DNA of 64,000 nt from a virus, in IMG/VR virus record IMGVR_UViG_3300049718_000055, positions 1 to 64,000 of that record; one strand, 5' to 3'. A program made the translations under genes and the position numbers. Under the pieces are notes generated by a model. That model saw only the letters and a list, made by a program, of their open reading frames with translations. It did no database searches and was not told the origin of the DNA. Positions 3,953 to 56,400 of this stretch are shown one piece after another (position 1 is the stretch's first letter; each line of letters opens with the position of its first letter).

Positions 3953-4001
3953 GAACCCATTGTCACTCTAATGAGCCATAAAACACAACCGGGAAGTGCG
4001 A

Positions 4002-5028: not shown

Positions 5029-5337
5029 CTACTGTTGTTGGGCTGCCTTCCCTATCTTTCTCTCAACCCATGCGTAGGAACCGTGCGCTGTGAGCCTCTG
5101 AGCCGTCCTGTGGTCTTTGCCGCATGGTCCCCAGCCTGTCACCGGCCCAGTGCTTGTGACGACGCGGCAGGCGGTAGCTGGGCGCACTGGAGGGGCGGTG
5201 TGGGGCGCGGTCTGGTGCTGTGGCGGCAGGGCCTGCTTGACGGTCTGCGCCTTGCATCGATAGGACAGAAGAAACAGGGCGATCAAAAAGAACAGCCAGA
5301 CGGCTGCGGCTATGCGGTGGAACGTGCGGTCAGTCAT
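5029..5337 (-). CDS. Putative membrane/secreted protein
   Basis: MTDRTFHR then a hydrophobic stretch; AAGGAG SD. Confidence 0.55.
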   Translation of the reverse strand: MTDRTFHRIAAAVWLFFLIALFLLSYRCKAQTVKQALPPQHQTAPHTAPPVRPATACRVVTSTGPVTGWGPCGKDHRTAQRLTAHGSYAWVERKIGKAAQQQ

Positions 5338-5818
5338 GAGACTCCTTTGCTTGTGGAGCGTTGATGGGGCGGTAGTGCGTCCAAGAATGAGATAGCCATT
5401 GGCGGGCAGTTCTAAAAGGGCGCTCAAATTTGTGGATTACAGCCTCTACACCCTGTACAAATCCGTAAACTTCATACCCCTCGGGAGGCAGATGCTCTTC
5501 GTCAATTGGCACCCATACCGCCGCCTTCCGCGCCTCAGCAAGCTGGCGTTTGAGAGATTCGATTTCTTCCGCGCAGCACTCTTTGGCTAGCACGCGCTGG
5601 AGTTCATTTCGCGCTTCATTCGCGGAATCTTTCGCCTCGGCAAGTTGGCGCTCTAGCTCATCGACACGCTCCGCTGTCAGCACCCCTGTCTCAGGGATGG
5701 TGGCAAGAACACTTCGTACAGATTGCTCTGATACTCGCCGTATGTAAGTTATCTCAACTCCGGCCTTCTTCGCCTCTACTACACGCATGGCTTCCCATTT
5801 CTTCGGTGTCAGTTCCAT
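5330..5818 (-). CDS. Hypothetical coiled-coil protein
   Basis: AAGGAG SD; WVPI...LPP...WTHYRPI C-terminal module. Confidence 0.65.
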   Translation of the reverse strand: MELTPKKWEAMRVVEAKKAGVEITYIRRVSEQSVRSVLATIPETGVLTAERVDELERQLAEAKDSANEARNELQRVLAKECCAEEIESLKRQLAEARKAAVWVPIDEEHLPPEGYEVYGFVQGVEAVIHKFERPFRTARQWLSHSWTHYRPINAPQAKESHD

Positions 5819-17235: not shown

Positions 17236-17781
17236 TCAGTTGATTGCGACAGCCGCGGTCTTGCCTTCAGTCGCTTCAAACAAAGGCCGCGAGTGCTTGT
17301 CCAGAAGAGCCTCGGCAAACGATTCGAGGTCTTTCTTGTAGCAGCCGTGATGAGCAACGACGCTCTGGAATTCCTCGATGTCGTGCTTCCGCAGGCGCCA
17401 TACTTTGCGGCTTCGAGAATCGACCACCTGTTCGCCGTCACCGTCAACCGCCTGAGCAACATGACACAGTTCGTGGTCCAAGAGAGCCTTCTTCTTGGCC
17501 GCATCGAATTCCTTGTCTCCCCAGGTTTCTGCGTTCAAGGTAATCACGAAGTCCCACTCGGAGAATTCTTTCTCCAGATCCGATGCTCGATGGCACTGTC
17601 CGAGAACGATGTGGCCGTCCGCGTCCGGCTTGGTATCCAACTTCCACGCCAGCGCGATCTTCGCTTGGATGGTGTCGGAGTGGTACTTCTTCCTGATCTC
17701 AGCCATCAGCCGATACGGTTCCAACTGCGGTTTTGCTTCGGGGTCGATCAACTCAACCTTTACCTGCTTTTCCTTTGCCAT
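17236..17781 (-). CDS. Phage putative metallopeptidase
   Basis: ALLDHELCH (HExxH) and RKHDIEEF..VV..HG. Confidence 0.85.
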   Translation of the reverse strand: MAKEKQVKVELIDPEAKPQLEPYRLMAEIRKKYHSDTIQAKIALAWKLDTKPDADGHIVLGQCHRASDLEKEFSEWDFVITLNAETWGDKEFDAAKKKALLDHELCHVAQAVDGDGEQVVDSRSRKVWRLRKHDIEEFQSVVAHHGCYKKDLESFAEALLDKHSRPLFEATEGKTAAVAIN

Positions 17782-43841: not shown

Positions 43842-44627
43842 CTACGCATTGATGATGTAGGCCGCGGTTCCAACGGCACTATTCAAATAGCCGCTGGCCG
43901 TTGCGATAGCCTTGATTGTCTCGCTTCCATATACTCCGATAGCGCCCGTGTACAGAGTGGATGAAGTCGTCGGCGTGCTCCCATCGGTAGTGTAGTAAAT
44001 CACCGCCCCCGGCGTCGTGCAACTAATCGCCACCGACTGCACTGTTGTATAAGACCCCGCCGCCGGCAAGAACGTCGGCGTTGCTGCCGTTAATCCGATA
44101 GTGAACAATGCGGTCGCTACCGCGCTGGTGTTGAAACCCGTTGCCGTCGCTATCGCCTTAACTGTCTCAGTGGACGTAATGGTGATTGGGGCGCTGTACA
44201 AAGTTGAAGACGTGGTTGGTGTCGATCCGTCAGTGGTGTAATAAATGGACGCTCCCGGTGATGAGCAACTGATCGCCACCGCTTGTCCTGAAGCGTAATT
44301 TCCCGCTGACGGAGAAAACGATGGTGTGGCCGCAGGATTGAGTGCAGGTCCGCTGATTGCCGCCCCCGCCAGAGATGTAAGTGAATTGGTCAACGTCTGA
44401 TTCGCTCCGTTATACGCCGTGTGCTGTGATGCAATCCAAGAGGTCACCTGAGCGATACTGCTGTTGAATTGGATGATGAACTGAGAGGCGTCTAGGCCGT
44501 AGTTGCGGGTAGGCCCGAGCCATGTACTTACCCCGTCCGTAGTCGAGGAATGCACCCGTACAGTGATGTGACCGCTTGCTTGATCTACTTGAACACTGTC
44601 AACAATGATTGATGTGGTATTTGCCAC
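43842..44627 (-). CDS. Protein with two chitobiase/Fn3-associated Ig-like repeats
   Basis: 2 x ATP.F.P.AG.Y...V.IS...GA.IYYTTDGSTPTTSSTLY...I....T.KAIA. Confidence 0.85.
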   Translation of the reverse strand: MANTTSIIVDSVQVDQASGHITVRVHSSTTDGVSTWLGPTRNYGLDASQFIIQFNSSIAQVTSWIASQHTAYNGANQTLTNSLTSLAGAAISGPALNPAATPSFSPSAGNYASGQAVAISCSSPGASIYYTTDGSTPTTSSTLYSAPITITSTETVKAIATATGFNTSAVATALFTIGLTAATPTFLPAAGSYTTVQSVAISCTTPGAVIYYTTDGSTPTTSSTLYTGAIGVYGSETIKAIATASGYLNSAVGTAAYIINA

Positions 44628-44636
44628 TTCACCCTC

Positions 44637-45821
44637 CTAGAAAAATACACCCGCGGTCGGAGAACCCACTATCGGAGATCCGCCGCCTCCACTCAATGAC
44701 ACCTGCCCACCAGAGTTCGTCAACACCACCACAGCAACTATTTGGTTCCCATCAAAATTTACCTGAAGCCTATTTTGTGCAGTATCGCCAGAATACGGCC
44801 CCGAAAGAATGACAATTCGGCTTCCCTTTTTGACGCTGTAGTACCACACGTTCCCTACTTCAACGCTTCCCCCAGACCCGCTAACGGTTCCCAGGGAGGC
44901 TTGATAGGTGAACGTATACGGCGGAGTTGCTGAACTGATCGGATATGAGCCATTGAACCCCGCAGGGGATACTCCGGCAATCGTCATCGAACTTTGAGCC
45001 GTGAGCCCCGTGGCTACATAGGTAACCACCGTCACAAGGTTTCCCACACTGGAGATTGAATGGATTCCATACGAGGTAGGAAGGGAAAGGGTATCCGTCC
45101 TTCCGTACAAATAGGTTTTACTTCCATCGGCAAAAGTGAAGGGGCTGGCCGGAATGGTTACCGTCACGCTTCCGGCATTTGTTATTGCAGCCACTAGGAA
45201 ATAGGCGCTTCCAACCGAGCCGGACTGAGTGGGATAAACCTTGTCCCCAATCGCATAATTCAACCCTCCAAAAACACTTCCCCCTGTGACCACCCCGCCA
45301 GCCGCCGTAATCGCAGCCAAAGCCCCCGTGCCGCTTCCCGAAGTGGTCGTAGGCAGGTTGGAAGCATTGCTGTACCCAGAAGTTCCGCCAGCCCCCAGAG
45401 AAGACGAAGTGATTACCCCGCCCGAGATAGAGTTCGTTGTCAGCGGAATGATGTTGTTGGCGTTTGGGGGAGTTGACATAAGATCGTTCAACCAGGAGCT
45501 TTGCTGCTCCCTCTGTGAATTTGAATTTATCATCCGATACGTGTCGAGAGAGTTTCCGCTGTTTGCCTGAAGCTGCGGCTTCAAAGCGGCAGCACTGTAC
45601 GAAGTCTTCGCCGCCCCGCTCGTCAACGCATCACTATCCGAGGTCGGCGCCGCAACATTCTTGATATTATTGCCACCGAGGTTGAGATGATTGCTCAACT
45701 CGACTTCCCCATTATGACCGCCAAGAGTGTTCACGTTGTCAATCAGTTGGCTCATCAATTGGCTCTCTGGAAGAGACAGGGAGGAAAAGTTTATCTTTCC
45801 GAGTTTGGAAGACTTCGGCAT
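44637..45821 (-). CDS. Virion structural (tail-associated) protein
   Basis: G/S/T-rich; IKNVAAPTSDSDA motif. Confidence 0.6.
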   Translation of the reverse strand: MPKSSKLGKINFSSLSLPESQLMSQLIDNVNTLGGHNGEVELSNHLNLGGNNIKNVAAPTSDSDALTSGAAKTSYSAAALKPQLQANSGNSLDTYRMINSNSQREQQSSWLNDLMSTPPNANNIIPLTTNSISGGVITSSSLGAGGTSGYSNASNLPTTTSGSGTGALAAITAAGGVVTGGSVFGGLNYAIGDKVYPTQSGSVGSAYFLVAAITNAGSVTVTIPASPFTFADGSKTYLYGRTDTLSLPTSYGIHSISSVGNLVTVVTYVATGLTAQSSMTIAGVSPAGFNGSYPISSATPPYTFTYQASLGTVSGSGGSVEVGNVWYYSVKKGSRIVILSGPYSGDTAQNRLQVNFDGNQIVAVVVLTNSGGQVSLSGGGGSPIVGSPTAGVFF

Positions 45822-46075
45822 TATCCAGCTACCTCTACTAGTTTTCCGTGCTGTTCCCACGGCGTAACGACATCATCAGGAACAGGACCAAAACACCTTC
45901 CTTCGTTCTTGCATTCCGATATTCCCGATCTTGACATTCTAGAATCAGGTTTTCCGTGAAAGATATGACGCTTCCCGTCAGTCTTTGAAATCTTCGGAAT
46001 CCAATACTGTTCGCACCCCCAGCAGTATCCGTCAACCTGAAACCTTGGAAATTCGGATTGGATCGTCTCTGGCAT
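45821..46075 (-). CDS. Hypothetical protein
   Basis: TATACT-6nt-ATG; TAATG coupling. Confidence 0.5.
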   Translation of the reverse strand: MPETIQSEFPRFQVDGYCWGCEQYWIPKISKTDGKRHIFHGKPDSRMSRSGISECKNEGRCFGPVPDDVVTPWEQHGKLVEVAG

Positions 46076-46153
46076 GGAATCAGTATACCCCAATGTAGGC
46101 ATAAACAGAAAAGCCTCTTCCGAAGAAGAGGCCCGTCTGCGGATAGGGGAAGC

Positions 46154-46501
46154 CTAAGCCGGGGTTGTAAATTGCACTGCCACGCTTTGCGTGAGTTGGG
46201 CCGGCGGAACGACAGCGTTCGTGGTGATTGTGAACGCCTGAGTCCAGGTCGAAACCACGCCGTCATTATCAGTGACCGTGGCAGCAGCCGTTCCAGTGAC
46301 AGCGCCGGCCGAGGCCGCTACGCCGGTAACAGTGGCGGTCAAGCCGTCAGCATTGAGAACCACGGTCGCGGACGGGTCCGAGAACGTGTACGAGACGGCA
46401 GAGAGTACGCCGCCAGAGAGGGTGACGCCATCGGCCAAAAGGGGCTGAATGGACGCCTGCGAAGTTTGACCAACATTGAGGGTCAAAGCATTGTTTGCCA
46501 T
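46154..46501 (-). CDS. Ig-like domain protein
   Basis: LTLNVGQT...SDPSATV...VTGVAA; AGGAG SD. Confidence 0.7.
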   Translation of the reverse strand: MANNALTLNVGQTSQASIQPLLADGVTLSGGVLSAVSYTFSDPSATVVLNADGLTATVTGVAASAGAVTGTAAATVTDNDGVVSTWTQAFTITTNAVVPPAQLTQSVAVQFTTPA

Positions 46502-46728
46502 GGGTGAGTCTCCTGTGAAACGAACTTCGATTGAGTAGGTTGCGAGTTTGGGTTTGAGTTCACGGCGAATCTCTCTGAGCAACCGCTCAATCCGATGTCT
46601 TGCATAGAGCGTTGCCCATTGACATTCTAAAATTTCACGTAATTGTTCGAGTGGATTCTCCAAATGGTCCCTCCACCAATCTCTTAACTACACTATACCA
46701 CTACATTTTGAATCTGTGGTGAGCAATA

Positions 46729-46812
46729 TGGAGCGGGGGACGGGATTTGAACCCGCGTGTCTCTCGACGGCAGCTTGGAAGGCTGCTGACCTACCAGTTG
46801 GTCATCCCCCGC
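46729..46812 (-). tRNA. tRNA-Gly(TCC), long variable arm
   Basis: GCAGC-CTTCCAA-GCTGC; CCA encoded. Confidence 0.9.
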
Positions 46813-46817
46813 AAACT

Positions 46818-46891
46818 TGGTGCTCCCCGCAGAAATCGAATCCGCATTGGCCGATAATCGGTCGGCTTTCCTACCATTGGAAGAGAGGAGC
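46818..46891 (-). tRNA. tRNA-Ile(GAT), atypical loop
   Basis: GCCGA-CCGATTA-TCGGC; CCA. Confidence 0.8.
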
Positions 46892-46892
46892 A

Positions 46893-46966
46893 TGGGGCCG
46901 GGAGCGAGAATCGAACTCGCGCCTCATCCGTACCAGGGATGCAGTCTCCCACTAAAATATCCCGGC
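46893..46966 (-). tRNA. tRNA-Thr(GGT)
   Basis: CATCC-CTGGTAC-GGATG; CCA. Confidence 0.88.
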
Positions 46967-46972
46967 TCTACT

Positions 46973-47050
46973 TGGTGCGGATGGCAGGACTCGAACCTGC
47001 GGTAATTCTTCTTTGTAGGAGAAGCGGCGTCGCCACTGGCCCACATCCGC
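46973..47050 (-). tRNA. tRNA-Val(TAC)
   Basis: CTTCT-CCTACAA-AGAAG; CCA. Confidence 0.85.
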
Positions 47051-47055
47051 AAAAC

Positions 47056-47133
47056 TGGTACTCCCGGTTGGACTCGAACCAACATCAATCCACTTACGGA
47101 CACTCGCTTCGGAGGCGAGACCGATACGGGAGC
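47056..47133 (-). tRNA. tRNA-Arg(CCG), no canonical D-arm
   Basis: CTCGC-CTCCGAA-GCGAG; normal T-arm and acceptor stem. Confidence 0.8.
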
Positions 47134-47138
47134 ATAAC

Positions 47139-47215
47139 TGGGGCCGCTGGCCGGAATCGAACCGGCGTCATCCAACTACTCTTGCCGGTTTAGGAAACCG
47201 GAGAGATACAGCGGC
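47139..47215 (-). tRNA. tRNA-Arg(CCT), no canonical D-arm
   Basis: CCGGT-TTCCTAA-ACCGG. Confidence 0.8.
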
Positions 47216-47219
47216 AAAC

Positions 47220-47296
47220 TGGCGCTCCCGGCAGGAGTCGAACCCGCGTCATCCGTCTACGGCCTCCTGTTTAGAAGACAGTGCCGATACGGGAGC
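47220..47296 (-). tRNA. tRNA-Arg(TCT), no canonical D-arm
   Basis: CTGT-CTTCTAA-ACAG. Confidence 0.8.
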
Positions 47297-47298
47297 AT

Positions 47299-47384
47299 TG
47301 GTGGAGCCGGTGGGACTCGAACCCACATTGGGTTACCCCGCTGATTAAAAGTCAGGTCTCTGCATCCAATTCGAGTACGACTCC
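47299..47384 (-). tRNA. tRNA-Lys(TTT), long variable arm
   Basis: CTGA-CTTTTAA-TCAG; V-arm GGGTAACCC. Confidence 0.88.
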
Positions 47385-47390
47385 GAAACT

Positions 47391-47465
47391 TGGTGGGTCG
47401 CCGGGGAATCGAACCCCGCTCTTTCGATTAAGAGTCGAGTGCATCGCCGACAATGCTTGCAACCC
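47391..47465 (-). tRNA. tRNA-Lys(CTT)
   Basis: TCGA-CTCTTAA-TCGA. Confidence 0.9.
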
Positions 47466-47468
47466 ACA

Positions 47469-47562
47469 TGGTAGGGGATGAAGGTGTCGAACCTTCCCGT
47501 TGCGCTAATCTGGCGCTCTCCAGAGTTTATAAGACTCCGCCGCACGGCCGATGCTATCCCCC
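47469..47562 (-). tRNA. tRNA with TAT anticodon (Ile), long variable arm
   Basis: GGAGT-CTTATAA-ACTCT; 94 nt. Confidence 0.8.
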
Positions 47563-47568
47563 AAAACT

Positions 47569-47640
47569 TGGTGCCGCGCCTGAAAATCGAATTCAGCAAA
47601 CAGGGTTATGAATCCTGCGTTCTCTCCAGAGATGCGCGGC
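47569..47640 (-). tRNA. tRNA-Met/Ile2(CAT), short D-arm
   Basis: CAGGA-TTCATAA-CCCTG. Confidence 0.75.
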
Positions 47641-47641
47641 T

Positions 47642-47715
47642 TGGCAGGGGATACAGGACTCGAACCCGTAAATTCCGCTCTGGAGGCGGACGTTTTTCCA
47701 TTAGACTAATCCCCT
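47642..47715 (-). tRNA. tRNA-Trp(CCA)
   Basis: TCCGC-CTCCAGA-GCGGA. Confidence 0.92.
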
Positions 47716-47729
47716 ATGTCAAAGAGCAT

Positions 47730-47756
47730 AAAAAACCCGCTCCTGAGAGCGGGCCT
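47730..47756 (-). terminator. Attenuator terminator 3
   Basis: AGGCCCGCTC-TCAG-GAGCGGGTTTTTT. Confidence 0.85.
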
Positions 47757-47780
47757 GTCGCAACAAAAACGCAGCAGACC

Positions 47781-47852
47781 CTAAAACACGACTCCCCAAA
47801 TGACCCGCTTCCCGGTCATTCTGGTTATCACGTGTTTGGTCCTGATCTGCAT
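47781..47852 (-). CDS. Leader peptide 3, MQIRTKHVITRMTGKRVIWGVVF
   Basis: Lies between promoter and terminator; codons match the 12 downstream tRNAs. Confidence 0.8.
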   Translation of the reverse strand: MQIRTKHVITRMTGKRVIWGVVF

Positions 47853-47872
47853 GAATTCCCACCTGCAAGTAC

Positions 47873-47901
47873 AGCGTACATCAACTTTCCGTTTTGTGCA
47901 A
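47873..47901 (-). promoter_or_regulatory. Promoter of tRNA block 3
   Basis: TTGCAC-17bp-TACGCT. Confidence 0.65.
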
Positions 47902-47905
47902 CTGC

Positions 47906-49090
47906 TCAGTCCTTGTAAGGATCAAATTCACGGGCAGATGCCATAGCCACTCCGACCGGGGTCAACACGTGAAGAACTTTGATCGAATCTCCACACGCCG
48001 CAAGAACTCCGTCTAGCCGTTTGTAGCAGTCTGGAGATTCGTCTAACCCGGCGCCACGCAGTTCAATTCCGGCCTTCCTTACCCATCCATCCATCATCTC
48101 CTGAGTTACTCTTCCAGGGCGCTTGCACTCGCCTGTCTTGCGGTCGAAAGTCCCCTTCGCCTCCATGCGACCCATTGCACGGCCAGCGCCGTGAACGGTT
48201 GAGTAAAGGCTGTACTTGGCATCCTCGTTCTCCATGCCCTCCAAGATGACGGACTTCTCGCCCATCGTTCCTCCAACGAATCCCTTCTGTCCAGGGAACG
48301 CCGGAGTGGCTCCCTTGCGAACAACCCACAGCATCTCACCACCATGCTCTTCCCGCCATGCGAAGTTGTGATGGTTGTGAACCTCTTCAATAGCCTTAGC
48401 TCCAAGAATCTTAATCACGCGGTCGCAGACCCAGTTCCTTCCTGCATAAGCGTACTCGCCGGCAAGAGACATAGCCTGTAGATATTCGCTGCCTAGTGCG
48501 CTGTCTACCGACAAGACACATGGCTCCACATCCATTCCGTCTTTTGCTCCTGCTGCTTTCAAAAACCACGTTGCAATCTTATGCCCGAGGCCGCGAGAAC
48601 CGAAATGAACACCCACCCAAACGCGGTCTTCTTCGTCTGTAAAAAGATCTACATAATGGTTTCCAGAACCCAAAGTCCCAAGTTGCTGATGAGCCATTTC
48701 CTTGAGCGGGGAGGTCATTGAAAGACTCCAGGCATCATGCTCGAAAACCTGATCGTCTACACGCTCGTCGTCATTCTTTCTCCCAACCCCAAAACTGACT
48801 ATATTCCATACGTCATCCATTATCGGCTTGATGCTGCCACGCAACATCCAGCCTTCCATGTCGGTCAACACGGCCTTGTTTCCACAGCCGATGTCGTATC
48901 CCACTCCGGTTGGGCTGATGGAATTTCTATAAGCCACAACACCGCCAATGGGCACACCGTACCCAAGGTGGTTATCTGGCATCAATGCCACTTTGTCCGC
49001 GGTTTTCGCACAGGTCCGAATCTGGTTGAGAGTCTTTTCTTCAGCTTCCCCAAATACCGGTATAGTTCCATCTACTAACTGCATCCCCAT
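47906..49090 (-). CDS. rtcB: RNA 3'-phosphate/5'-OH ligase RtcB
   Basis: MPDNHLGYGVPIGG; VGYDIGCG; GTLGSGNHY; HFGSRG; HNHHN; RKGAT; HGAGR; DESP..YK. Confidence 0.96.
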   Translation of the reverse strand: MGMQLVDGTIPVFGEAEEKTLNQIRTCAKTADKVALMPDNHLGYGVPIGGVVAYRNSISPTGVGYDIGCGNKAVLTDMEGWMLRGSIKPIMDDVWNIVSFGVGRKNDDERVDDQVFEHDAWSLSMTSPLKEMAHQQLGTLGSGNHYVDLFTDEEDRVWVGVHFGSRGLGHKIATWFLKAAGAKDGMDVEPCVLSVDSALGSEYLQAMSLAGEYAYAGRNWVCDRVIKILGAKAIEEVHNHHNFAWREEHGGEMLWVVRKGATPAFPGQKGFVGGTMGEKSVILEGMENEDAKYSLYSTVHGAGRAMGRMEAKGTFDRKTGECKRPGRVTQEMMDGWVRKAGIELRGAGLDESPDCYKRLDGVLAACGDSIKVLHVLTPVGVAMASAREFDPYKD

Positions 49091-49105
49091 ACCCTCCTTT
49101 TTATT

Positions 49106-49180
49106 TGGTGAGCGCGGAGGGAATCGAACCCCCATCGTTGCGTTCGTAGCGCAGCACTCTATCCGTTGAGCTACGCGCCC
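49106..49180 (-). tRNA. tRNA-Arg(ACG)
   Basis: TGCG-CTACGAA-CGCA. Confidence 0.93.
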
Positions 49181-49191
49181 ACATTCAAACT

Positions 49192-49265
49192 TGGTCTCCG
49201 AGGGCGGACTCGAACCGCCGACACCGCGCCCCGAACGCGGGATGTTTCCACTACACTACTCAGAG
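49192..49265 (-). tRNA. tRNA-Pro(CGG)
   Basis: CCGCG-TTCGGGG-CGCGG. Confidence 0.92.
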
Positions 49266-49266
49266 A

Positions 49267-49340
49267 TGGTCAGCGAGGGGAGAATTGAACTCCCACCACA
49301 AGTTCCCAAGACTTGGATGCAACCATTACACCACTCACTG
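49267..49340 (-). tRNA. tRNA-Pro(TGG)
   Basis: CAAGT-CTTGGGA-ACTTG. Confidence 0.9.
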
Positions 49341-49348
49341 ATTAAAAG

Positions 49349-49517
49349 TTATGCGTGACGGAATCAAACCGTCTCCACCCGCTCCAATGCGGGAGTGCTA
49401 TCCGTCCAGAGTCGTGTCGATCTTGAGCCGCTACGTATCGCCCCAAAACGCATTCCACTGTACTGCCTTCGCTACGCTCCGTCGAGCTTCACTTTGGCTT
49501 CATTACACCAACGCATA
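49349..49517 (-). ncRNA. tRNA-like RNA with a ~95-nt insertion in the D-loop
   Basis: TATGCGT/ACGCATA acceptor stem, GTGT/GCAC D-stem, CCCGC-ATTGGA-GCGGG, T-arm GACGG-TTTGATT-CCGTC; no CCA. Confidence 0.65.
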
Positions 49518-49519
49518 CT

Positions 49520-49595
49520 TGGTGCCGACTACCCGTATCGAGCGGGTTTCCATCGCTCTTCAGGCGATTGCTATGACCTCATCAGCTAAGTCGGC
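49520..49595 (-). tRNA. tRNA-Phe(GAA)
   Basis: ATCGC-CTGAAGA-GCGAT. Confidence 0.9.
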
Positions 49596-49600
49596 AAAAC

Positions 49601-49676
49601 TGGTGGACCTAGAGGGGCTTGAGTCCTCGACCTCCCCGGTGCAAACGGGGTGCTACTCCATCTGAGCTATAGGCCC
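49601..49676 (-). tRNA. tRNA-Ala(TGC)
   Basis: CCCCG-TTTGCAC-CGGGG; G3:U70 present. Confidence 0.92.
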
Positions 49677-49684
49677 GTAAAACT

Positions 49685-49760
49685 TGGAGGGAAAGGTGGG
49701 AGTTGGACCCACTAGAACCTGTTCCACAGACAGGCGCCGCACCGTTTGGCTTCAGTCCCC
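49685..49760 (-). tRNA. tRNA-His(GTG), weak acceptor stem
   Basis: CCTGT-CTGTGGA-ACAGG. Confidence 0.78.
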
Positions 49761-49770
49761 ATAAAGCTGT

Positions 49771-49842
49771 TGGGGCCGGATGTGGGAATCTAACCCACCG
49801 CGCAGGCCGTACAAAGGGCTGCTGCTACTCAGAGCATCCGGC
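49771..49842 (-). tRNA. tRNA-Thr(TGT), atypical D-arm
   Basis: Loop TTTGTAC; perfect acceptor and T stems. Confidence 0.72.
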
Positions 49843-50391
49843 TCAGTTAAACGCATACCTCTTATCACCTTCGGAGTCCGTGAATAAAAACGGACCCCAC
49901 TCATTTACCTCGGCGCCGAGAGACCTCAACAAAAATCGCGGCGTGTGAATCGACTGCGGCAGCGGCCGGCGAAGCAACTTCATTCCAGCTTCCTCCGGCG
50001 TCCGGTCGGCCTTGCGGTGATTATCTTTGGCGCAACATGAAACCAAGTTGCTCCACGATGGCGATCCTCCTCTTGACTTTGGAATTATGTGGTCAAGAGT
50101 TAGTTCGCTAGTCTTGAACCTTTCTCCGCAATACATACACCTTTCTCCGTCACGAAGAAAAATGTTCTTGCGGCTTACAACTTGAAGCCTAATTGGGACG
50201 TGGCGATAAGCGCGAAGCCTGATTACCGATGGAGCATAGATTCCAAGTCCGCGATGGATAAGTACATCGGTAGGAACCTCAACCAGAGCAACACCTTTCG
50301 TAATAAGAGTCAGAGCCTTCTTAACTGAAACTATGCGAAGCGGCTCATACGATGCATTGAGAAGAAGTGTTGCGCTTTTTCCTATTGTCAT
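49843..50391 (-). CDS. HNH endonuclease
   Basis: LLLNASYEPL; SRKNIFLRDGERCMYCG; TLDHIIPKSRGG..SWSNLV.CC...N..K..RTPEEAGM. Confidence 0.93.
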   Translation of the reverse strand: MTIGKSATLLLNASYEPLRIVSVKKALTLITKGVALVEVPTDVLIHRGLGIYAPSVIRLRAYRHVPIRLQVVSRKNIFLRDGERCMYCGERFKTSELTLDHIIPKSRGGSPSWSNLVSCCAKDNHRKADRTPEEAGMKLLRRPLPQSIHTPRFLLRSLGAEVNEWGPFLFTDSEGDKRYAFN

Positions 50392-51163
50392 AGTCACCAC
50401 GCTCCCAACGTTCTTTCAGTAAAGCAGACATCTTCGCCTTAGTTTCTTCCTTGTGCTTCATACCTTTGTTTCCAGGTACTCTGCCTTTCCTGATTGCCGA
50501 CTGTTTAGCCCGTGTTTCTTCGGAAGCCTTTTTACCTGTCAGAGAGCGAGAAATCTTTGCTTTACTCTCTTCTGAAAGTTTCCTTCGTCTGTTCGCCGCA
50601 GAAATCTTCTCACTAAATCCCTGCGGTTTAGGTCTCCCCTTCAAAGCAGCAGATCGTTTTGCTTTTTCTTCCTCCGACATTGGGCCTAATTTCCGGCCCC
50701 TAAATGATGCCGACATACGCGCTTTGGTTTCTTCCGAACGCTTTGAACCAGTCCTAGATTTAATCATCTTGGCTATCGCCTCTGCTGTGTGTCTCAATCC
50801 CTTATGCACAGCAGATACTTTCGCTTTCATTTCGGCTGTTCTAACCGCTCCTGATCCTCCCTCGCCCCCATCTGTTCTATTTCTCAAGCATCCAGTTCCA
50901 AGGTTAATTCTCCCATGGAATTTTATTAGCTGCTTCTCCATGAAAAACGCTTCGTCCTCTGACAAATCTTTGGCAATAATTACAATCATCGATTTATCTT
51001 TTGGAGTACGTATCGCTTCAATAGGATTTTTCTTATAGGCTCTTAACCCGTGTCCTTTCCCTATGTAATAAGGAGAACCCGCTGGGCCGTGTTCGGAGGC
51101 AAAAGTCCTCACGTATTGGTATACGTAAAACCCAGAGATTACAGGTCTCCTATAGTTACTCAC
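50345..51163 (-). CDS. GIY-YIG endonuclease with NUMOD3 repeats
   Basis: FYVYQY...YYIGKG...R; LRNRTDGGEG; repeated SEETKAKMS. Start refined to GTG 51163. Confidence 0.88.
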   Translation of the reverse strand: MSNYRRPVISGFYVYQYVRTFASEHGPAGSPYYIGKGHGLRAYKKNPIEAIRTPKDKSMIVIIAKDLSEDEAFFMEKQLIKFHGRINLGTGCLRNRTDGGEGGSGAVRTAEMKAKVSAVHKGLRHTAEAIAKMIKSRTGSKRSEETKARMSASFRGRKLGPMSEEEKAKRSAALKGRPKPQGFSEKISAANRRRKLSEESKAKISRSLTGKKASEETRAKQSAIRKGRVPGNKGMKHKEETKAKMSALLKERWERGDYDNRKKRNTSSQCIV

Positions 51164-51187
51164 TGTCTTACTCTCTTTCCTTAAAAG

Positions 51188-51262
51188 TGGAGCCGGGTAG
51201 CGAAATCGAATCGCTGTCTGTGGGATACGAATCCACTGCTCTGCCATCTGAGCTAACCCGAC
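51188..51262 (-). tRNA. tRNA-Thr(CGT)
   Basis: GTGGA-TTCGTAT-CCCAC. Confidence 0.88.
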
Positions 51263-51345
51263 TATGTTTTTCTGCTAACCTCTTCCACACTTCTCGGAGA
51301 TCGGCATTCAAATGAAACCTGTGCGGCATGTCAACCTCCAAAATT

Positions 51346-51419
51346 TGGAGCGGTTTGCCGGATTTGAACCGGCGCTTTCGCCCTGGCAAGGCAACGTCTT
51401 ACCACTCGACTAAAACCGC
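51346..51419 (-). tRNA. tRNA-Gly(GCC)
   Basis: TTGCC-TTGCCAG-GGCGA. Confidence 0.9.
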
Positions 51420-51424
51420 TTCAC

Positions 51425-51498
51425 TGGCTCCGAGAGTAGGAGTCGAACCTACACAGCGAGCTTCAAAGACTCGCGGCCTACCGTTAACCGATCTCGGA
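51425..51498 (-). tRNA. tRNA-Gln(TTG)
   Basis: CGAGT-CTTTGAA-GCTCG. Confidence 0.92.
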
Positions 51499-51505
51499 TC
51501 AAACT

Positions 51506-51581
51506 TGGCTGGGAAGGCAAGTCTCGAACTTGCTACCTTCCGGGTCAGAGCCGGACGTTCTACCCGTTGAACTTCTTCCCA
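51506..51581 (-). tRNA. tRNA-Gln(CTG)
   Basis: TCCGG-CTCTGAC-CCGGA. Confidence 0.92.
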
Positions 51582-51590
51582 ACTTCAAAC

Positions 51591-51665
51591 TGGCTGTGCA
51601 GGTGGGAGTCGGACCCACATCCTCTCGCTTAACAGGCGAACGCTCGACCATTGAGCTACCGCACA
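51591..51665 (-). tRNA. tRNA-Asn(GTT)
   Basis: TCGC-CTGTTAA-GCGA. Confidence 0.9.
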
Positions 51666-51667
51666 TC

Positions 51668-51706
51668 AAAAAGCCCCTAACCGCTTATTCTCGGCTAGGG
51701 GCTTTT
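51668..51706 (-). terminator. Attenuator terminator 2
   Basis: AAAAGCCCCTAGCCG...CGGTTAGGGGCTTTTT. Confidence 0.85.
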
Positions 51707-51749
51707 CCTCATTTGCTACGTTGTAGCAGTTGAATCTTTGCGCCCAAGC

Positions 51750-51812
51750 CTACACGGGATTACCGAACGCTTGTGGCGTTGTCGGCTGTCCGGTATGGGC
51801 TCGGTTCATCAT
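51750..51812 (-). CDS. Leader peptide 2, MMNRAHTGQPTTPQAFGNPV
   Basis: Starts 7 nt after the -10 box; codons match the 12 downstream tRNAs. Confidence 0.8.
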   Translation of the reverse strand: MMNRAHTGQPTTPQAFGNPV

Positions 51813-51819
51813 GTTTCCT

Positions 51820-51848
51820 ACTTTACCGCCGTTCGCAATTTCTGTCAA
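51820..51848 (-). promoter_or_regulatory. Promoter of tRNA block 2
   Basis: TTGACA-17bp-TAAAGT. Confidence 0.8.
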
Positions 51849-51857
51849 ATCATTTTC

Positions 51858-51934
51858 TGGTAGGGTTGGTGGAACTCGAATCCACTAGGACATGATTGAA
51901 GGTCATGGTGCTCGTCCGCTTTGCATTCAACCCC
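51858..51934 (-). tRNA. tRNA-Glu(TTC)
   Basis: CATGA-CCTTCAA-TCATG. Confidence 0.8.
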
Positions 51935-51939
51935 ATAAC

Positions 51940-52016
51940 TGGCGCGGTAGACGGAAATCGAATCCGTGTACACGATCTTGAGAGAATCGCTGGAGAACCA
52001 GCACCCCTGCTACCGC
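51940..52016 (-). tRNA. tRNA-Glu(CTC)
   Basis: CGATT-CTCTCAA-GATCG. Confidence 0.8.
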
Positions 52017-52017
52017 A

Positions 52018-52092
52018 TGGCGGTCCCACGGGGAGTTGAACCCCGAACGCCTCTTAGACAGAGAGGAATCATTGCCGTTAGACCATGGGACC
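52018..52092 (-). tRNA. tRNA-Asp(GTC)
   Basis: CCTCT-CTGTCTA-AGAGG. Confidence 0.9.
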
Positions 52093-52095
52093 AAA

Positions 52096-52212
52096 AGTTC
52101 CGTTTTGTTTGCCTAGCGGCCCAGTCTCCCATCGCATTAGCAGAATTCCGACTGAGGTTCATCCACTGCGGACTCGAGTCCGTTTGCTAGACTCTTGCCA
52201 GAACGGTACTGG
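52096..52212 (-). ncRNA. Candidate structured ncRNA inside the tRNA array
   Basis: Terminal stem AGTaCCGTT/AACGGaACT; GTCTAGC/GCTAGGC; perfect palindrome CGGACTCGAGTCCG. Confidence 0.45.
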
Positions 52213-52221
52213 CCTTTGGAT

Positions 52222-52296
52222 TGGTTGCGTGGGGAGGACTCGAACCTCCGGTCTCCAGCTTATGAGGCTGGCGAGATGCCGCTTCTCTACCTCGCC
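52222..52296 (-). tRNA. tRNA-Met(CAT), initiator-like
   Basis: CCAGC-CTCATAA-GCTGG; 1:72 mismatch; GCAACCA end. Confidence 0.88.
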
Positions 52297-52301
52297 ATTT
52301 C

Positions 52302-52330
52302 AGTATGCCACTACTCTTTCATGTTGGCAA
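52302..52330 (-). promoter_or_regulatory. Promoter of the Met/Asp/Glu/Glu block (no attenuator)
   Basis: TTGCCA-17bp-CATACT; +1 falls near the tRNA-Met 5' end. Confidence 0.65.
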
Positions 52331-52333
52331 GTA

Positions 52334-52419
52334 TGGTGCATCGCCCCAGGCTCGAACTGGGCTGCTCCGAAGAGCGGCAGGTTTACAGTCTGCTGGCCGT
52401 CCACCCGACCATGCGATGC
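52334..52419 (-). tRNA. tRNA-Tyr(GTA)
   Basis: GCAGA-CTGTAAA-CCTGC; long V-arm. Confidence 0.88.
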
Positions 52420-52423
52420 AAAA

Positions 52424-52513
52424 TGGAGGAAGGTGGAGTAATCGAAACCCTACGCCATCGCTGACGCACCACGGTTTTCAGGACCGTTCGCCGACCATTC
52501 AGCGGCACCTTCC
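52424..52513 (-). tRNA. tRNA-Ser(TGA)
   Basis: ACGGT-CCTGAAA-ACCGT; long V-arm. Confidence 0.88.
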
Positions 52514-52517
52514 AAAC

Positions 52518-52605
52518 TGGCGGAGACGATCCGATTTGAACGGATGGAACCTTGCGGTTCGGAGGTTTAGCAAACCTCTGGATTAGACCGCTCTCCCACG
52601 TCTCC
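52518..52605 (-). tRNA. tRNA-Ser(GCT)
   Basis: GAGGT-TTGCTAA-ACCTC; long V-arm. Confidence 0.93.
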
Positions 52606-52610
52606 AAACT

Positions 52611-52686
52611 TGGTGCCGATGGTCGGGTACGAGCCGACAAGCCTGAAGGTTTGAGCTTCAGAGGTATTCCTTCCCATCACATCGGC
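52611..52686 (-). tRNA. tRNA-Leu(CAA), short variable loop
   Basis: TGAAG-CTCAAAC-CTTCA. Confidence 0.8.
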
Positions 52687-52691
52687 AAAAC

Positions 52692-52767
52692 TGGTGCGGG
52701 TGGAGGGACTCGAACCCCCATGAGACTGATCCTAAGTCAGCCGCGTATTCCATTCCGCCACACCCGC
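52692..52767 (-). tRNA. tRNA-Leu(TAG), short variable loop
   Basis: GCTGA-CTTAGGA-TCAGT. Confidence 0.88.
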
Positions 52768-52778
52768 ACATCTCAAAC

Positions 52779-52851
52779 TGGAGTACCGGGCCGGACTTTA
52801 ACCGGCTTCAACGGTTTTGCAGACCGTCCGCTCGCCCTTCGCTTCCGGTAC
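52779..52851 (-). tRNA. tRNA-Cys(GCA)
   Basis: ACGGT-CTGCAAA-ACCGT; U73. Confidence 0.85.
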
Positions 52852-52852
52852 A

Positions 52853-52930
52853 TGGTGCGGGTGAACGGTGTCGAACCGATCCTAAACTGGGCTTAAACCA
52901 GTTGCCTCTTCCAACGTGGGCTACACCCGC
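52853..52930 (-). tRNA. tRNA-Leu(TAA), short variable loop
   Basis: ACTGG-TTTAAGC-CCAGT. Confidence 0.88.
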
Positions 52931-52931
52931 A

Positions 52932-52967
52932 CAAAACAAAGCCGCCGATCTCTTCGACCGGCGGCTC
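52932..52967 (-). terminator. Attenuator terminator 1
   Basis: GAGCCGCCGGTC-GAAGA-GATCGGCGGCTT-TGTTTTG. Confidence 0.85.
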
Positions 52968-52992
52968 GTGAATTCCAAACTTTGGAATCAGT

Positions 52993-53058
52993 TCACATAA
53001 GCCCCCGGCCCGTCAATGGCAGGCAATACGAGGATAGCGAACTGAGTAAAATTCTCAT
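52993..53058 (-). CDS. Leader peptide 1, MRILLSSLSSYCLPLTGRGLM
   Basis: Leaderless start; contains all six Leu codons plus Ser, Tyr and Cys codons, matching the 7 downstream tRNAs. Confidence 0.8.
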   Translation of the reverse strand: MRILLSSLSSYCLPLTGRGLM

Positions 53059-53064
53059 ATCCAA

Positions 53065-53093
53065 ATCTTCCCACAGATAATCATTATTGTCAA
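53065..53093 (-). promoter_or_regulatory. Promoter of tRNA block 1
   Basis: TTGACA-17bp-GAAGAT-6nt-ATG. Confidence 0.7.
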
Positions 53094-53156
53094 TCGGTCA
53101 TTCCGGTACAGTTAAATTCCCCTCTTCGTCCTCCAATTGAGGCTGAGGTGTACACC

Positions 53157-53372
53157 ATGCCACTAAGTTTGTTTTGGATCATCGCCGTTGTAATCATTGC
53201 CGGAGTAGTTCTTTGGGCTCTAAACTCGTTCCCTGCCATTGACCCCACCATGAAGCAGATCGCCAGAGTGCTTATCATCGTGCTCGTGGTTATCATGGTT
53301 CTCTACTTCCTGTTTGGATTGCTTGCAGGTGGTGGTGCGGGATTCCATAGCTTCCCCGGTCCTTGCCGCTAA
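53157..53372 (+). CDS. Small two-TM membrane protein
   Basis: IIAGVVLWALN..P.IDP.MKQI..VLIIV; GAGGTG SD. Confidence 0.8.
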   Translation: MPLSLFWIIAVVIIAGVVLWALNSFPAIDPTMKQIARVLIIVLVVIMVLYFLFGLLAGGGAGFHSFPGPCR

Positions 53373-53384
53373 TCTTGCCGGCAC

Positions 53385-53414
53385 AAAAAAGCGGCAGACC
53401 CGAAAGCCTGCCGC
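53385..53414 (-). terminator. Intrinsic terminator insulating the tRNA array from upstream transcription
   Basis: GCGGCAGGCTTTCGGGTCTGCCGC-TTTTTT. Confidence 0.85.
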
Positions 53415-53482
53415 ATTCCCCATGATTTGATCTGCGTTGTTATGAATAAACTCTACATCCGGTCGTAGAAGTTGTCAACCGC

Positions 53483-56400
53483 TCATGGCTCCACAAACAA
53501 TACTTTCTCGTAGCCTCTCCCTTGGCACTGGACCTTGTACCACAAATTAGAATCAGGCCAAAGAATAAAGTCCTCCGTACTTGTTCCGACCATTCTCAGT
53601 GTACGGAACGAGATTGCCGGTAGTCGGGTCCGCAATGGATTGCGAAAGCCGCCAGCTTGCGGCATTACAAATGTGAATCCAGCCGTTGGATTATCGTCGT
53701 AGAACACGTTGACAATGATCGGCGCACCCGCTGAGTAAATCCAGAAAACGTCGCGCGCAAATTTGGAAGATGCCTCCGAAATATTGATCTTGTAAGTGTC
53801 GAACGTCTTCCTCGTCCTCGGCAGTACCAGAGCCTCTACAGCGGCTTGGTACAGGTACGCGAACGTGGACAGATTCCCGACGATCTGGAGACTGATTTTG
53901 TAGGCTTGCTGGCCGAGTCCGTTGAGCAACGGCAGGTTGATCTTGCCGCGAGTCGAGTTGCTGATCGTTCCGAGTGGGACCGTGATTGCGCCGTCATTAA
54001 ACAAGGCGTTGACGGTCAAGGTCTGCCCCCCGAGGTTGCAGTCAACCACAATCGCGTTGTACTGTTTCTGGTTTGCCGGCGAGCTTTGGAATGAGTAAGC
54101 AGTCTGGAGATTGATTGCAATCGGCCCCGCGGCCAGTACGCCCCCGCTTGATACTTGATCGTAGGGAAGGTTTTGCCGGTCAATGTGTACGAGCCCGTTT
54201 GAATCGCCGTAGAGCAACTGATTCGTATCGGCCTCAAGCATCAAGCATTGCGCGTCAACGTCATCATTCCTGAATCGCTTGTACTGAGCGTGGTATACCA
54301 ACCGATGCCGGTTTCCGTCCGTACCGATGTAACTGAAAAATACCATTGAGTTCCAGTACGAAGCCACCGTCTGCGACAACTTCGTTTGGTCCGCTTCGAC
54401 AATCGGAGTGGAACCTACGCCCTGGAAAAGGAACTCAACCTGGAGACTCATGTACACCGACTCCCCACCAGTAAAAGCACGTAGACCATCTGCGGCTTGG
54501 TAGGCAATCATCTCTTCGGTCGCCACGTACCCAAATGGCGCCACACAACCATGCGCACAAGACGTGGGATATGGTGCCTGTTTTGCCGGACTGTCCGGTG
54601 GAACCATCCACCATCCGCTTTTGATACAACTGACCATGATATTTCCCTTGAAAGGCACCACGGCCGTAATGTAATCATCCGGCGTAGAGATGATGATGTT
54701 GTTCGCTTCACCCACGTACTGCGGAGCGTTTCCGGTGCTGAAGTAAAGCGTTGACGGGTTGTTCGGATCTCCCCAATACCATGCCTTGTTGAAAGCTATG
54801 ACCATGCCGTAGACCGGCTGGCCTACCTTAATACTCGCCTGGACCTGCTCTCCAGCCGCATGATAATTCTGGACAAAGGCAGTGAAAGAACTCACTCCGA
54901 CTGTCAATACCACTACGGTTTCAAAGTTGTTTGCTTGAGCCGTTGGATTCCCCAACAAGACTTGCTGGCGCACTGAGATGTTCGCCATGCTTGCCGGGTT
55001 TATCGTCACTACAGAGCCCACCGGAATATCTGGCAGCGTGTAATAGATCGTGACCACTAGATTGTTGACATAGACGGTTGCCGCTGATGATCCTAAGTTG
55101 TCTCCGCCTACAAGCGTCTGAGTAAAATCAGCATTGACGATTGCAGGAGTAATCGTAGTGCCCCACAAATTTCCACTTCCACCAAAGACATAAGTCTGCG
55201 GAGCTAGTGTCAAGGAAATCTCTGCCGGAAGGGCGGCTCCGGGAATATTTATACTTGCGGTCATCTTAGGACCGAGCACGCTCGTATAAGCATCAAAGCT
55301 GACTTTAATTCCGGTGATGGTCGCGGTTAAGGGGATGCTCGGAAGACTGAAGTCTCCCTGCAAGGCCCCAATCCCTTGCGAAGCAGGTGCCGACACGGAC
55401 GTATAAAGTGATGAAGATGTAGCGTTGGTTGGATTTACCCAAGTAGACCCGACCGGATTCGATCCTGTGATTGACGGAGAAACCTGTAATGTTCCTACAA
55501 TAGCAGCGTTCAGTGTAGTATTCACCGGAACCGGAAGAAGACTCGGAACCGGAACATCGTTCGTAAACGAAACCATATCCGCTCCGGCTATCAGGTAGTC
55601 CGGTGCCGTGTCGGTATACTGGACTATCCCCCCGCCCTCTATGCTGATCGGGATTTCGTCTATTCGCCTGAAGTTATCTCCGTAGGTTCCCCCTCTTCTA
55701 TAGATTCTCAGATACCCGATCTGACCATCCTGCAACTGTCCTGCGGGTCCGTAAGTCTTAGTGTTGATTTTTAACAACACCGGCTGGCGCCGCGGGTAGA
55801 CCCAGTTCGTATGGTTAGGCGGGTTCTGATTCGTCATTATCGGAGATGGATTCGATTCCGTTCCATCCACGTCATTTAAGAACGTCGCAACATAGTCATA
55901 GGCTACTCCACCAAGAGTATCTGGACCTGCCCCTCCAAACAGTACCAGAGAAGAAAGTTTAATCGTCGAGCTTGAGTTGTCATTCATCACAATCGTGATC
56001 TGATAGCCGTTGACGTTTGACCAGTTGTAGACCGCATCTTTATAGTCCGCCATCCCTGCTCCAGAAAAATCTGACAACTGGAAGAGAAGCGGCGTCCAGA
56101 TATTTTTCCCTGTATCCAGTTCTCCGATAGACCCGGCTCCATTTCCGTAAAGGCTGAGACTATCCTCAAGAACAGCTTCCGTTAGAAGAGTAGTTACGCT
56201 ACTTGTCCCAGAGGCAGAAGATGTTGCTAAAGTAGTCAACTCCTGCAAAGGTCCTTGGGAAATTACTTTATAGAAATAGTCGCTCTCGAATGATCCGTCT
56301 CCGCAATCAAAACTTAGCGTTATGCTCTGGATTTGCGTTTGGTCGCTGACAAACATATAGAGACCAATGTAATCAGATTGGTTGTCGGATACAGTCTCGC

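Follow-up and report, generated by a model that had tools for sequence, protein, structure and literature searches.

A codon panel ahead of a 12-tRNA block: a probable ribosome-mediated attenuator of tRNA genes in a phage genome

What the tRNA genes of phages are for, and how phages set the levels of these tRNAs, has been debated for decades; the main proposals are codon compensation, making good the degradation of host tRNAs, and escape from defences that target tRNAs (e.g. PMC10264068). The locus described here bears on the second question, namely how the supply of phage tRNAs might be fitted to the demand for them. It lies in the first 64 kb of the 88.6-kb IMG/VR virus record IMGVR_UViG_3300049718_000055 (estimated completeness 91%), and this whole stretch of 64,000 nucleotides is referred to below as the window. 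In minus-strand order the locus comprises the RtcB gene, a promoter-like pair of boxes, a Shine-Dalgarno-like site, an open reading frame (ORF) of 23 codons, a terminator and 12 tRNA genes; the ORF, here called leader 3, the terminator and the tRNA block are all on the minus strand. An earlier note on this DNA had read the arrangement as an attenuator. In our analysis the codons of leader 3 match the anticodons of the tRNAs behind it, and we consider it probable, judging from the sequence and its relatives, that leader 3 is a ribosome-mediated attenuator of the trp type, through which the block would respond to the decoding speed of its own codons.

The leader and the block that it would control are made up as follows.

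47781-47852, minus strand: leader ORF 3, 23 codons plus TAG (ATG at 47852, TAG at 47781), peptide MQIRTKHVITRMTGKRVIWGVVF
46729-47715, minus strand: tRNA block putatively gated by leader 3, 12 tRNA genes (ARAGORN, direct reading, homologues)
47715-47642, minus strand: tRNA-Trp (cca), starting 15 nt after the T run of the terminator
47640-47569, minus strand: tRNA with anticodon cat
47562-47469, minus strand: tRNA-Ile (tat)
47465-47391, minus strand: tRNA-Lys (ctt)
47384-47299, minus strand: tRNA-Lys (ttt)
47296-47220, minus strand: tRNA-Arg (tct)
47215-47139, minus strand: tRNA-Arg (cct)
47133-47056, minus strand: tRNA-Arg (ccg)
47050-46973, minus strand: tRNA-Val (tac)
46966-46893, minus strand: tRNA-Thr (ggt)
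46891-46818, minus strand: tRNA-Ile (gat)
46812-46729, minus strand: tRNA-Gly (tcc)

With default settings ARAGORN finds only seven tRNAs between 47715 and 46729. Relaxed ARAGORN settings, direct reading and homologues add the CAT tRNA, Ile(GAT) and the Arg tRNAs TCT, CCT and CCG, so that all 12 tRNAs listed in the earlier note were recovered. The codon inventory given there is also that of the ORF: leader 3 contains ATC, ATA and ATT, AAA and AAG, AGG, AGA and CGG, GGG and GGA, TGG, three ACC, two GTG and two GTC codons, and an internal ATG. Every one of the 12 block anticodons has at least one codon in leader 3, 11 of them by exact Watson-Crick pairing and Val-UAC via GTG. By standard wobble the block reads 17 of the 22 codons after the start; the figure of 19 of 22 that had been claimed is reached only if the two GTC codons are credited to Val-UAC, the sole Val tRNA of the phage. 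The three unmatched codons (CAG, CAC and TTT) are read by tRNAs of the preceding block. In random ORFs drawn from the phage's own codon usage (300,000 draws), coverage of 12/12 anticodons has a probability of ~6e-5, and 17 or more matched codons out of 22 never occurred (0/300,000, P<3e-6). Among the 540 ORFs of 18-30 codons in the genome, leader 3 is the only one with 12/12 coverage. The other two frames of the same DNA cover only 2/12 anticodons, and when nine variants of the leader are pooled, the matched fraction is 75% in frame vs 24% and 20% in the other frames. The match is frame-specific and is therefore not explained by base composition or by constraints on RNA structure. The match between the leader codons and the tRNA block is thus real and far beyond chance. 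The description of AGG, AGA, CGG and ATA as rare codons did not hold for the phage's own genes, in which AGA makes up 16%, AGG 17% and CGG 21% of Arg codons and ATA 15% of Ile codons.

Is it the codons that are conserved, or the peptide, or the RNA? Relatives were found by RtcB, DNA-pattern and peptide-pattern searches, and the nine versions of leader 3 are that of the window, those of four syntenic IMG/VR phages (G001-G004) and four metagenome variants; the related leader variants come from peat and tundra phages. Across the nine the 12-tRNA block is invariant, and they keep 11-12/12 anticodon coverage even though the central part of the peptide varies, reading RMTGKRVIWG at one extreme and TITIAKRMGWG at the other. 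All indels within the leader ORF keep the frame. In five variants 6-7 nt separate the -10 box from the start codon, implying a leaderless mRNA; in the other four the start codon follows a Shine-Dalgarno sequence (AGGTGG, GGAAGGA or AAGGA). In the window the corresponding signals are the following.

47873-47901, minus strand: candidate promoter, TTGCAC (47901-47896), a 17-nt spacer and TACGCT (47878-47873)
47857-47864, minus strand: Shine-Dalgarno-like AGGTGGGA, whose end is 4 nt and whose AGGTGG core is 6 nt before the ATG

The candidate promoter site is homologous to the TTGCAA/TTGACA-17-TACAGT/TACTAT/TATAGT of the relatives. An element that acts untranslated, with the ORF incidental, could be a structured 5' leader, a hairpin that serves processing or stability, or a small RNA whose end is the terminator; it would account for the high nucleotide conservation and for the covariation in the long hairpin described below. 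It would not account for a codon match confined to one frame, for indels that keep that frame, for a start codon that either has a constant spacing to the -10 box or is preceded by a Shine-Dalgarno sequence, or for a stop codon that always puts the terminating ribosome over the antiterminator strand. In addition, no Rfam family, T-box included, was found at 47716-47905 in a scan of 44000-55000 at E<=1. We regard such an untranslated element as improbable.

The genome has three cassettes of leader ORF, terminator and tRNA block, and the other two allow one to ask whether each leader is fitted to the block that follows it.

53058-52993, minus strand: leader 1 (element 52939-53093), MRILLSSLSSYCLPLTGRGLM, covering 8/8 anticodons (three Leu, Cys, two Ser, Tyr and Met)
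51812-51750, minus strand: leader 2 (element 51672-51848), MMNRAHTGQPTTPQAFGNPV, covering 12/12 anticodons

The block of leader 2 carries Asn, two Gln, Gly-GCC, two Thr, His, Ala, Phe, two Pro and Arg-ACG tRNAs. The matrix of leaders against blocks is dominated by its diagonal, each leader covering only 1-6 anticodons of the other blocks. Leader 2 is present in all six genomes for which the region is available (window, G001-G004 and L092), and its coverage is 12/12 in each one scored (window, G001, G003 and L092) although the order of the residues is reshuffled, which points to selection on codon content and not on the peptide.

Each of the six Leu codons occurs once in leader 1, together with Ser, Tyr and Cys codons; its start lies 6 nt after a -10 box and its terminator at 52967-52939. 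It does not sample the Asp, Glu and Glu tRNAs behind a 129-nt gap, and no clear combination of ORF and terminator was found in that gap (52221-52093) as a leader for these three. Leader 2 starts 7 nt after the promoter TTGACA-17-TAAAGT. Its block also holds two homing-endonuclease-type genes and then RtcB, which may be co-gated with the leader 2 tRNAs.

DNA matching the window is found mainly in peat, bog and permafrost metagenomes, and the same correspondence between leader and block was found in two more distant phages. One, an IMG/VR phage (L011), has an RtcB 61% identical and a different tRNA order. Its two leaders (2944-3030 and 3883-3969) are mutually unrelated, cover 8/8 and 19/22 of their own blocks (P ~0.002 each) and are both depleted for codons of the other block. 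The second of these has a stop-overlapping antiterminator (CCCCGTAG/CTACGGGG) followed by a terminator; after the first ORF no clear terminator was seen. The other is the jumbo phage Tunturi_5 of the acidobacterium Tunturiibacter (L103, PP885688.1), the nearest isolate in the phage collection, with 68.5% nucleotide identity in the RtcB gene. Its gp308 (5220-5369, minus strand), annotated as a hypothetical protein of 49 aa, is followed by a terminator and precedes a Trp-led block that additionally carries Asp and Glu tRNAs. It covers 15/15 distinct anticodons with 33 of its 48 codons matched (P=3e-4), and it includes six Asp and two Glu codons. A second leader of Tunturi_5, an unannotated ORF of 37 codons at ~17607-17720 (minus strand) followed by a terminator, covers 13/13 anticodons with 24/36 codons matched (P=2.5e-5), and its GCA, GCC and GCG codons match the three Ala tRNAs of that phage. 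Leader content thus tracks block content across lineages. A quick scan of four tRNA-bearing phages from the RtcB search (L005, L023, L057 and L058) gave no convincing leaders; a candidate Thr/Pro-rich leader stands before L005:1246.

The core of our reading, that is, a putatively translated leader that inventories the downstream tRNAs and is joined to a terminator and antiterminator, is strongly supported by these statistics and comparisons, because the match is frame-specific, coverage is kept in nine variants, indels preserve the frame, the start is consistently placed and two independent lineages agree. A translated ORF joined to a terminator could also gauge general translation capacity, or the coupling of transcription to translation, and not the supply of specific tRNAs. 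What it measured would then be ribosome availability or host shut-off, and the codon panel would merely let the phage tRNAs read the leader. That there are only 1-3 codons per tRNA fits such a gauge, as does the fact that a ribosome lagging from any cause would give the same fold. A general gauge, however, would not need block-specific panels, whereas the three leaders of this genome each match their own block and are depleted for the others, the matching to the own block holds in L011 and Tunturi_5 too, and leader content follows the differences in block content. We therefore think a general gauge unlikely.

How, then, might leader 3 act on the genes behind it? The parts of the putative switch are these.

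47838-47844, minus strand: region 1, CAGGACC (codons 3-5), partner of the stop-proximal strand in the ground state of the RNAalifold consensus (helix 1; also by pair counts)
47799-47820, minus strand: apical hairpin AATGACC/GGTCATT, inside the ORF (folds; consensus helix 4)
47802-47809, minus strand: inner antiterminator strand AGCGGGTC, the second option of the earlier note, with partner GGCCCGCT
47775-47781, minus strand: stop-proximal antiterminator strand GGGTCTG, which overlaps the G of the TAG
47751-47757, minus strand: antiterminator 3' strand CAGGCCC, which overlaps the 5' arm of the terminator
47730-47756, minus strand: intrinsic terminator, AGGCCCGCTC, loop TCAG, GAGCGGGTTT, then a T run; dG about -16.9

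The terminator, whose stem (47756-47733) has 10 pairs, is found in all nine variants, and the eight variants other than that of the window have five further stem sequences with compensatory changes (helix 5). The RNAalifold consensus of the nine variants consists of a long leader hairpin and the terminator, with CAGGACC of codons 3-5 paired to GGGTCTG and the AATGACC/GGTCATT hairpin as its cap. In this consensus 90.5% of cells are paired, vs 81% in shuffles (0/500 shuffles reach the observed value) and 28-59% when the partners are slid. Nine consensus pairs are changed on both sides, in the apical hairpin and the terminator among others; the apical hairpin, for example, shows a compensatory change to CCATT/GATGG in L096 and L101. 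The anatomy of the element, its codon-match statistics and its conservation and co-variation in relatives are thus seen directly.

The apical hairpin was part of the earlier note's scheme, and it may serve as a pause hairpin. Both antiterminator pairings proposed there also exist: in this copy the best 14-nt duplex with the 5' arm of the terminator has a value of -16.1 for the inner pairing (AGCGGGTC/GGCCCGCT) vs -13.5 for the stop-proximal one (GGGTCTG/CAGGCCC). The 1:2/2:3/3:4 layout suggested there stands as a trp-like logic, but the conserved 1:2 pairing differs from the one proposed and is that of codons 3-5 (CAGGACC) with the stop-proximal strand. In the relatives the counterpart of the inner strand reaches only -8.5 to -13.4 against the terminator 5' arm, and it is clearly weaker than the stop-proximal pairing in 5/9 variants and roughly equal in G001 and L092. 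The conserved candidate antiterminator is the stop-proximal strand with CAGRCC and the terminator arm, and in 9/9 variants a ribosome halted on the stop codon would cover this strand. In G001 the terminator arm reads CCCCGG, and its partner strand carries the corresponding change, to CCGGGG. Because MAFFT displaces CAG-RCC by one column from variant to variant, the antiterminator was scored free of alignment, by duplex energy against random 33-mers; the duplex of stop-proximal strand and terminator arm beats the random sequences at P<=0.004 in 6/9 variants. In the copy of the window the operating helix may, on these energies, possibly be formed by the stop-proximal strand, by the inner strand or by both.

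The transcript was also folded up to the terminator loop, before the 3' arm exists, with the ribosome masked. These prefix folds predict that the stop-proximal strand sequesters the terminator 5' arm while the A site lies between codon 2 and ~3-4 codons before the stop. With the ribosome at the stop, the 5' arm is predicted to be freed in 5/9 variants (G001, G002, G003, G004 and L092).

From these data we infer the translation of the ORF, the switch and its polarity. Transcripts would originate at the weak local promoter or enter from the RtcB/tRNA operon that lies upstream. If decoding were fast, the lead ribosome would reach the stop codon and, as the folds suggest, its footprint would cover GGGTCTG; after release of the ribosome, GGGTCTG would be expected to pair back with codons 3-5, the terminator would form and transcription would stop 15 nt before tRNA-Trp. 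If any of the 12 aminoacyl-tRNAs were scarce, as might happen early in infection, in a host with poor isoacceptors or after cleavage by an anticodon nuclease, decoding would be slow and the ribosome would be predicted to lag inside the ORF. The stop-proximal strand, and here possibly the inner strand too, would then take the 5' arm of the terminator, and with the antiterminator formed RNA polymerase would read through into the tRNA genes. The outcome would be a tRNA block that feeds back negatively on its own synthesis.

Several results weigh against this mechanism. In the window's own copy, placing the ribosome at the stop does not free the terminator arm in the folds, which still pair it with the inner strand, and the stop-proximal duplex is marginal in the window (P=0.078), G001 and L092. 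In minimum-energy folds of the full-length RNA with ribosome masks the terminator always wins (window, G001 and G004); since the full-length RNA favours the terminator thermodynamically, the choice made by the attenuator must be kinetic, as in trp. Prefix folds in which there is no ribosome mostly predict the antiterminator, while untranslated trp leaders terminate more strongly. The candidate promoter is weak, agreeing with the consensus at 7/12 positions, and was missed by a consensus scan. There are no runs of codons as in his or trp, and with 1-3 codons per tRNA sensitivity to a mild tRNA shortage is doubtful. In the peat metatranscriptome X19 one contig matches 47184-47442 exactly, and a contig of a relative bridges the leader and tRNA-Trp; such RNA-library contigs are indistinguishable from DNA carry-over and show no 3' ends, and they were not counted as support.

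The position of the element behind RtcB suggests a further possibility, that of an ordinary small peptide gene with its terminator, or of the terminator of an RtcB operon, in which case the tRNAs would owe their expression to constitutive leak-through or to a promoter that has escaped recognition, and the match in codons would be non-regulatory. Two features bear on it.

ends at 47906, minus strand: RtcB gene (Pfam PF01139, E 2e-69)
47717-47723, minus strand: conserved TTTGACA-like motif, between the leader terminator and tRNA-Trp

The terminator does lie downstream of RtcB on the same strand, and a conserved TTTGACA does follow it, exact in 5/9 variants and near in the others (TTTGAAA, TTAGACA in L101 and AGGACA in L102) and present in Tunturi_5 as well. 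However, there is no usable -10 box after TTTGACA, the element is found before tRNA-Trp whichever of three genes lies upstream, and the peptide drifts while codon coverage stays, leader 2 being reshuffled and still 12/12. We consider this explanation very improbable. A second promoter at TTTGACA was tried and rejected, no acceptable -10 box being found at 16-18 nt (spacing checked in the window and G004), and a promoter scan found no sigma-70-like promoter on the minus strand within the 12-tRNA block. A plain RtcB-operon terminator was likewise rejected, as the element precedes the tRNA block behind other upstream genes too; leader and Trp-led block are kept together behind at least three upstream neighbours, namely RtcB, a membrane-protein gene and tRNA-Arg.

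Some of the tRNAs in the 12-tRNA block are themselves unusual. The tandem tRNA-Arg genes TCT, CCT and CCG (47056-47296, minus strand) have a non-canonical fold with the anticodon at positions 22-24. A helix of 3-4 bp joins positions 11-13 to the bases directly after the anticodon stem and is followed by a D-loop-like GTAnnnGGA, and this helix covaries in 13 copies (CGG/CCG, CTC/GAG, TCC/GGA and CCC/GGG). Default ARAGORN and the Rfam tRNA model both miss these tRNAs, and Rfam gives weak tRNA-Sec and tmRNA matches. The tRNA-Ile(TAT) (47469-47562, minus strand) has a long, class-II-like variable arm and a total length of 94 nt, the CAT tRNA (47569-47640, minus strand), which default ARAGORN misses, has a very small D-loop, and Lys(TTT) and Gly(TCC) are over-long as well, at 86 and 84 nt. 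From the codon match the earlier note had suggested a working role in decoding for the oddly folded Arg and TAT tRNAs. The match is consistent with this but does not establish it: L096 and L101 have canonical Arg tRNAs at the positions of the odd ones, and since the leader codons are the same in relatives whose Arg tRNAs are canonical, the match alone is no proof that the odd tRNAs decode. The codon-match rule nevertheless offers indirect support for the reality of odd tRNAs that are overlooked by standard finders.

Further observations concern the surroundings of the other two leaders. An HNH endonuclease gene (PF14279/PF01844) and a gene with a NUMOD3 motif lie inside the tRNA block of leader 2 (49846-51184, minus strand), and relatives have similar endonuclease-type insertions at different positions of the array. 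Between tRNA-Phe and tRNA-Pro a gap of 179 nt (49341-49519, minus strand) has tRNA-like ends, with matching acceptor 5' and 3' strands and a T-arm. These ends enclose ~100 nt of additional sequence, and the gap may be a tRNA that is interrupted or contains an intron. In the region 53148-53423 the plus strand carries a small hydrophobic ORF (53148-53372) that converges on a hairpin (53414-53391), which may be a two-way terminator between this ORF and a minus-strand gene of 1280 aa.

Leader peptides that respond to more than one amino acid are known from enterobacteria, in thrL (Thr, Ile) and ilvL of ilvGMEDA (Leu, Val, Ile), alongside trpL, hisL and pheL. The phage element resembles these in having a short promoter-proximal ORF with regulatory codons for more than one amino acid and an intrinsic terminator before the regulated genes. 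It resembles them too in that an alternative helix would take the terminator 5' arm when the ribosome lags, while the full-length fold favours the terminator and the choice is kinetic. It differs in what it would gate, 12 tRNA genes, whereas the scope of the classical leaders is amino-acid biosynthesis or synthetase genes, and in its leader, which has about one codon per downstream anticodon (12 tRNAs, 8 amino acids) where the classical ones have runs of codons for 1-3 amino acids. Many of the phage copies, moreover, appear to be leaderless mRNAs, unlike the enterobacterial leaders. A further difference is that the phage element would sense and make the same molecules, so the feedback would be direct. 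In the Escherichia coli pheST operon, pheM places a gene of the translation apparatus under leader-peptide attenuation. As in the phage, a component of the decoding machinery is attenuated there and the regulatory codons are cognate to it, but pheM gates the synthetase of one amino acid, with no tRNA genes and no multi-codon panel. T-box riboswitches also sense tRNA status and also set a terminator against an antiterminator upstream of translation-related genes; a T-box, however, binds uncharged tRNA directly and without translation, whereas the phage signal would be a panel of in-frame codons.

The nearest published case is the long tRNA array of Anabaena sp. PCC 7120, the trn operon: translational stress induces it, and it is regulated together with rtcB (PMC8421152). 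It shares with the phage locus an accessory tRNA array associated with rtcB and an expression that rises when translation is impaired. Unlike the phage element, it is controlled by a protein repressor, TrcR, whose direct-repeat sites overlie the -10 box and the transcription start site (PMC10272220). The TrcR direct repeats (TGTWNWWNWNNWGTANYNWA) have 0 matches in the whole window, and the words attenuat-, leader and terminator are absent from the text of the Anabaena trn-operon paper. In full-text searches of the literature, and in the Anabaena trn-operon and Tunturi papers, no description of leader-peptide attenuation of tRNA genes was found, and the results of a pheU/pheV search contained nothing that indicated attenuation of a tRNA gene. 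The locus thus appears to combine the logic of classical attenuation with a new target, tRNA genes, and a new leader design of one codon per tRNA.

A broader proposal, which we find worth entertaining although we do not yet lean towards it, is that phage tRNA arrays have a built-in sensor of the tRNA pool, each block being autoregulated by a leader that inventories its anticodons, and that this is a general principle of regulation, shared by unrelated lineages. The codon-match rule also offers an aid to annotation in that it delimits tRNA transcription units. The cultured pair of Tunturi_5 on Tunturiibacter psychrotolerans X4BP1 (PMC11924767) carries the same elements and the leaders are small, which makes the question testable. 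If the broader proposal is correct, losing a matching host tRNA, to a defence anticodon nuclease or for want of good isoacceptors, would induce precisely those tRNAs that replace it, along with the RtcB repair ligase in the case of leader 2, and tRNA synthesis would shut off again once decoding recovers. A leader that gauged how fast the codons of its own block are decoded would be the first regulatory connection of phage tRNA supply to tRNA demand, and would carry classical attenuation beyond amino-acid metabolism into the decoding machinery.

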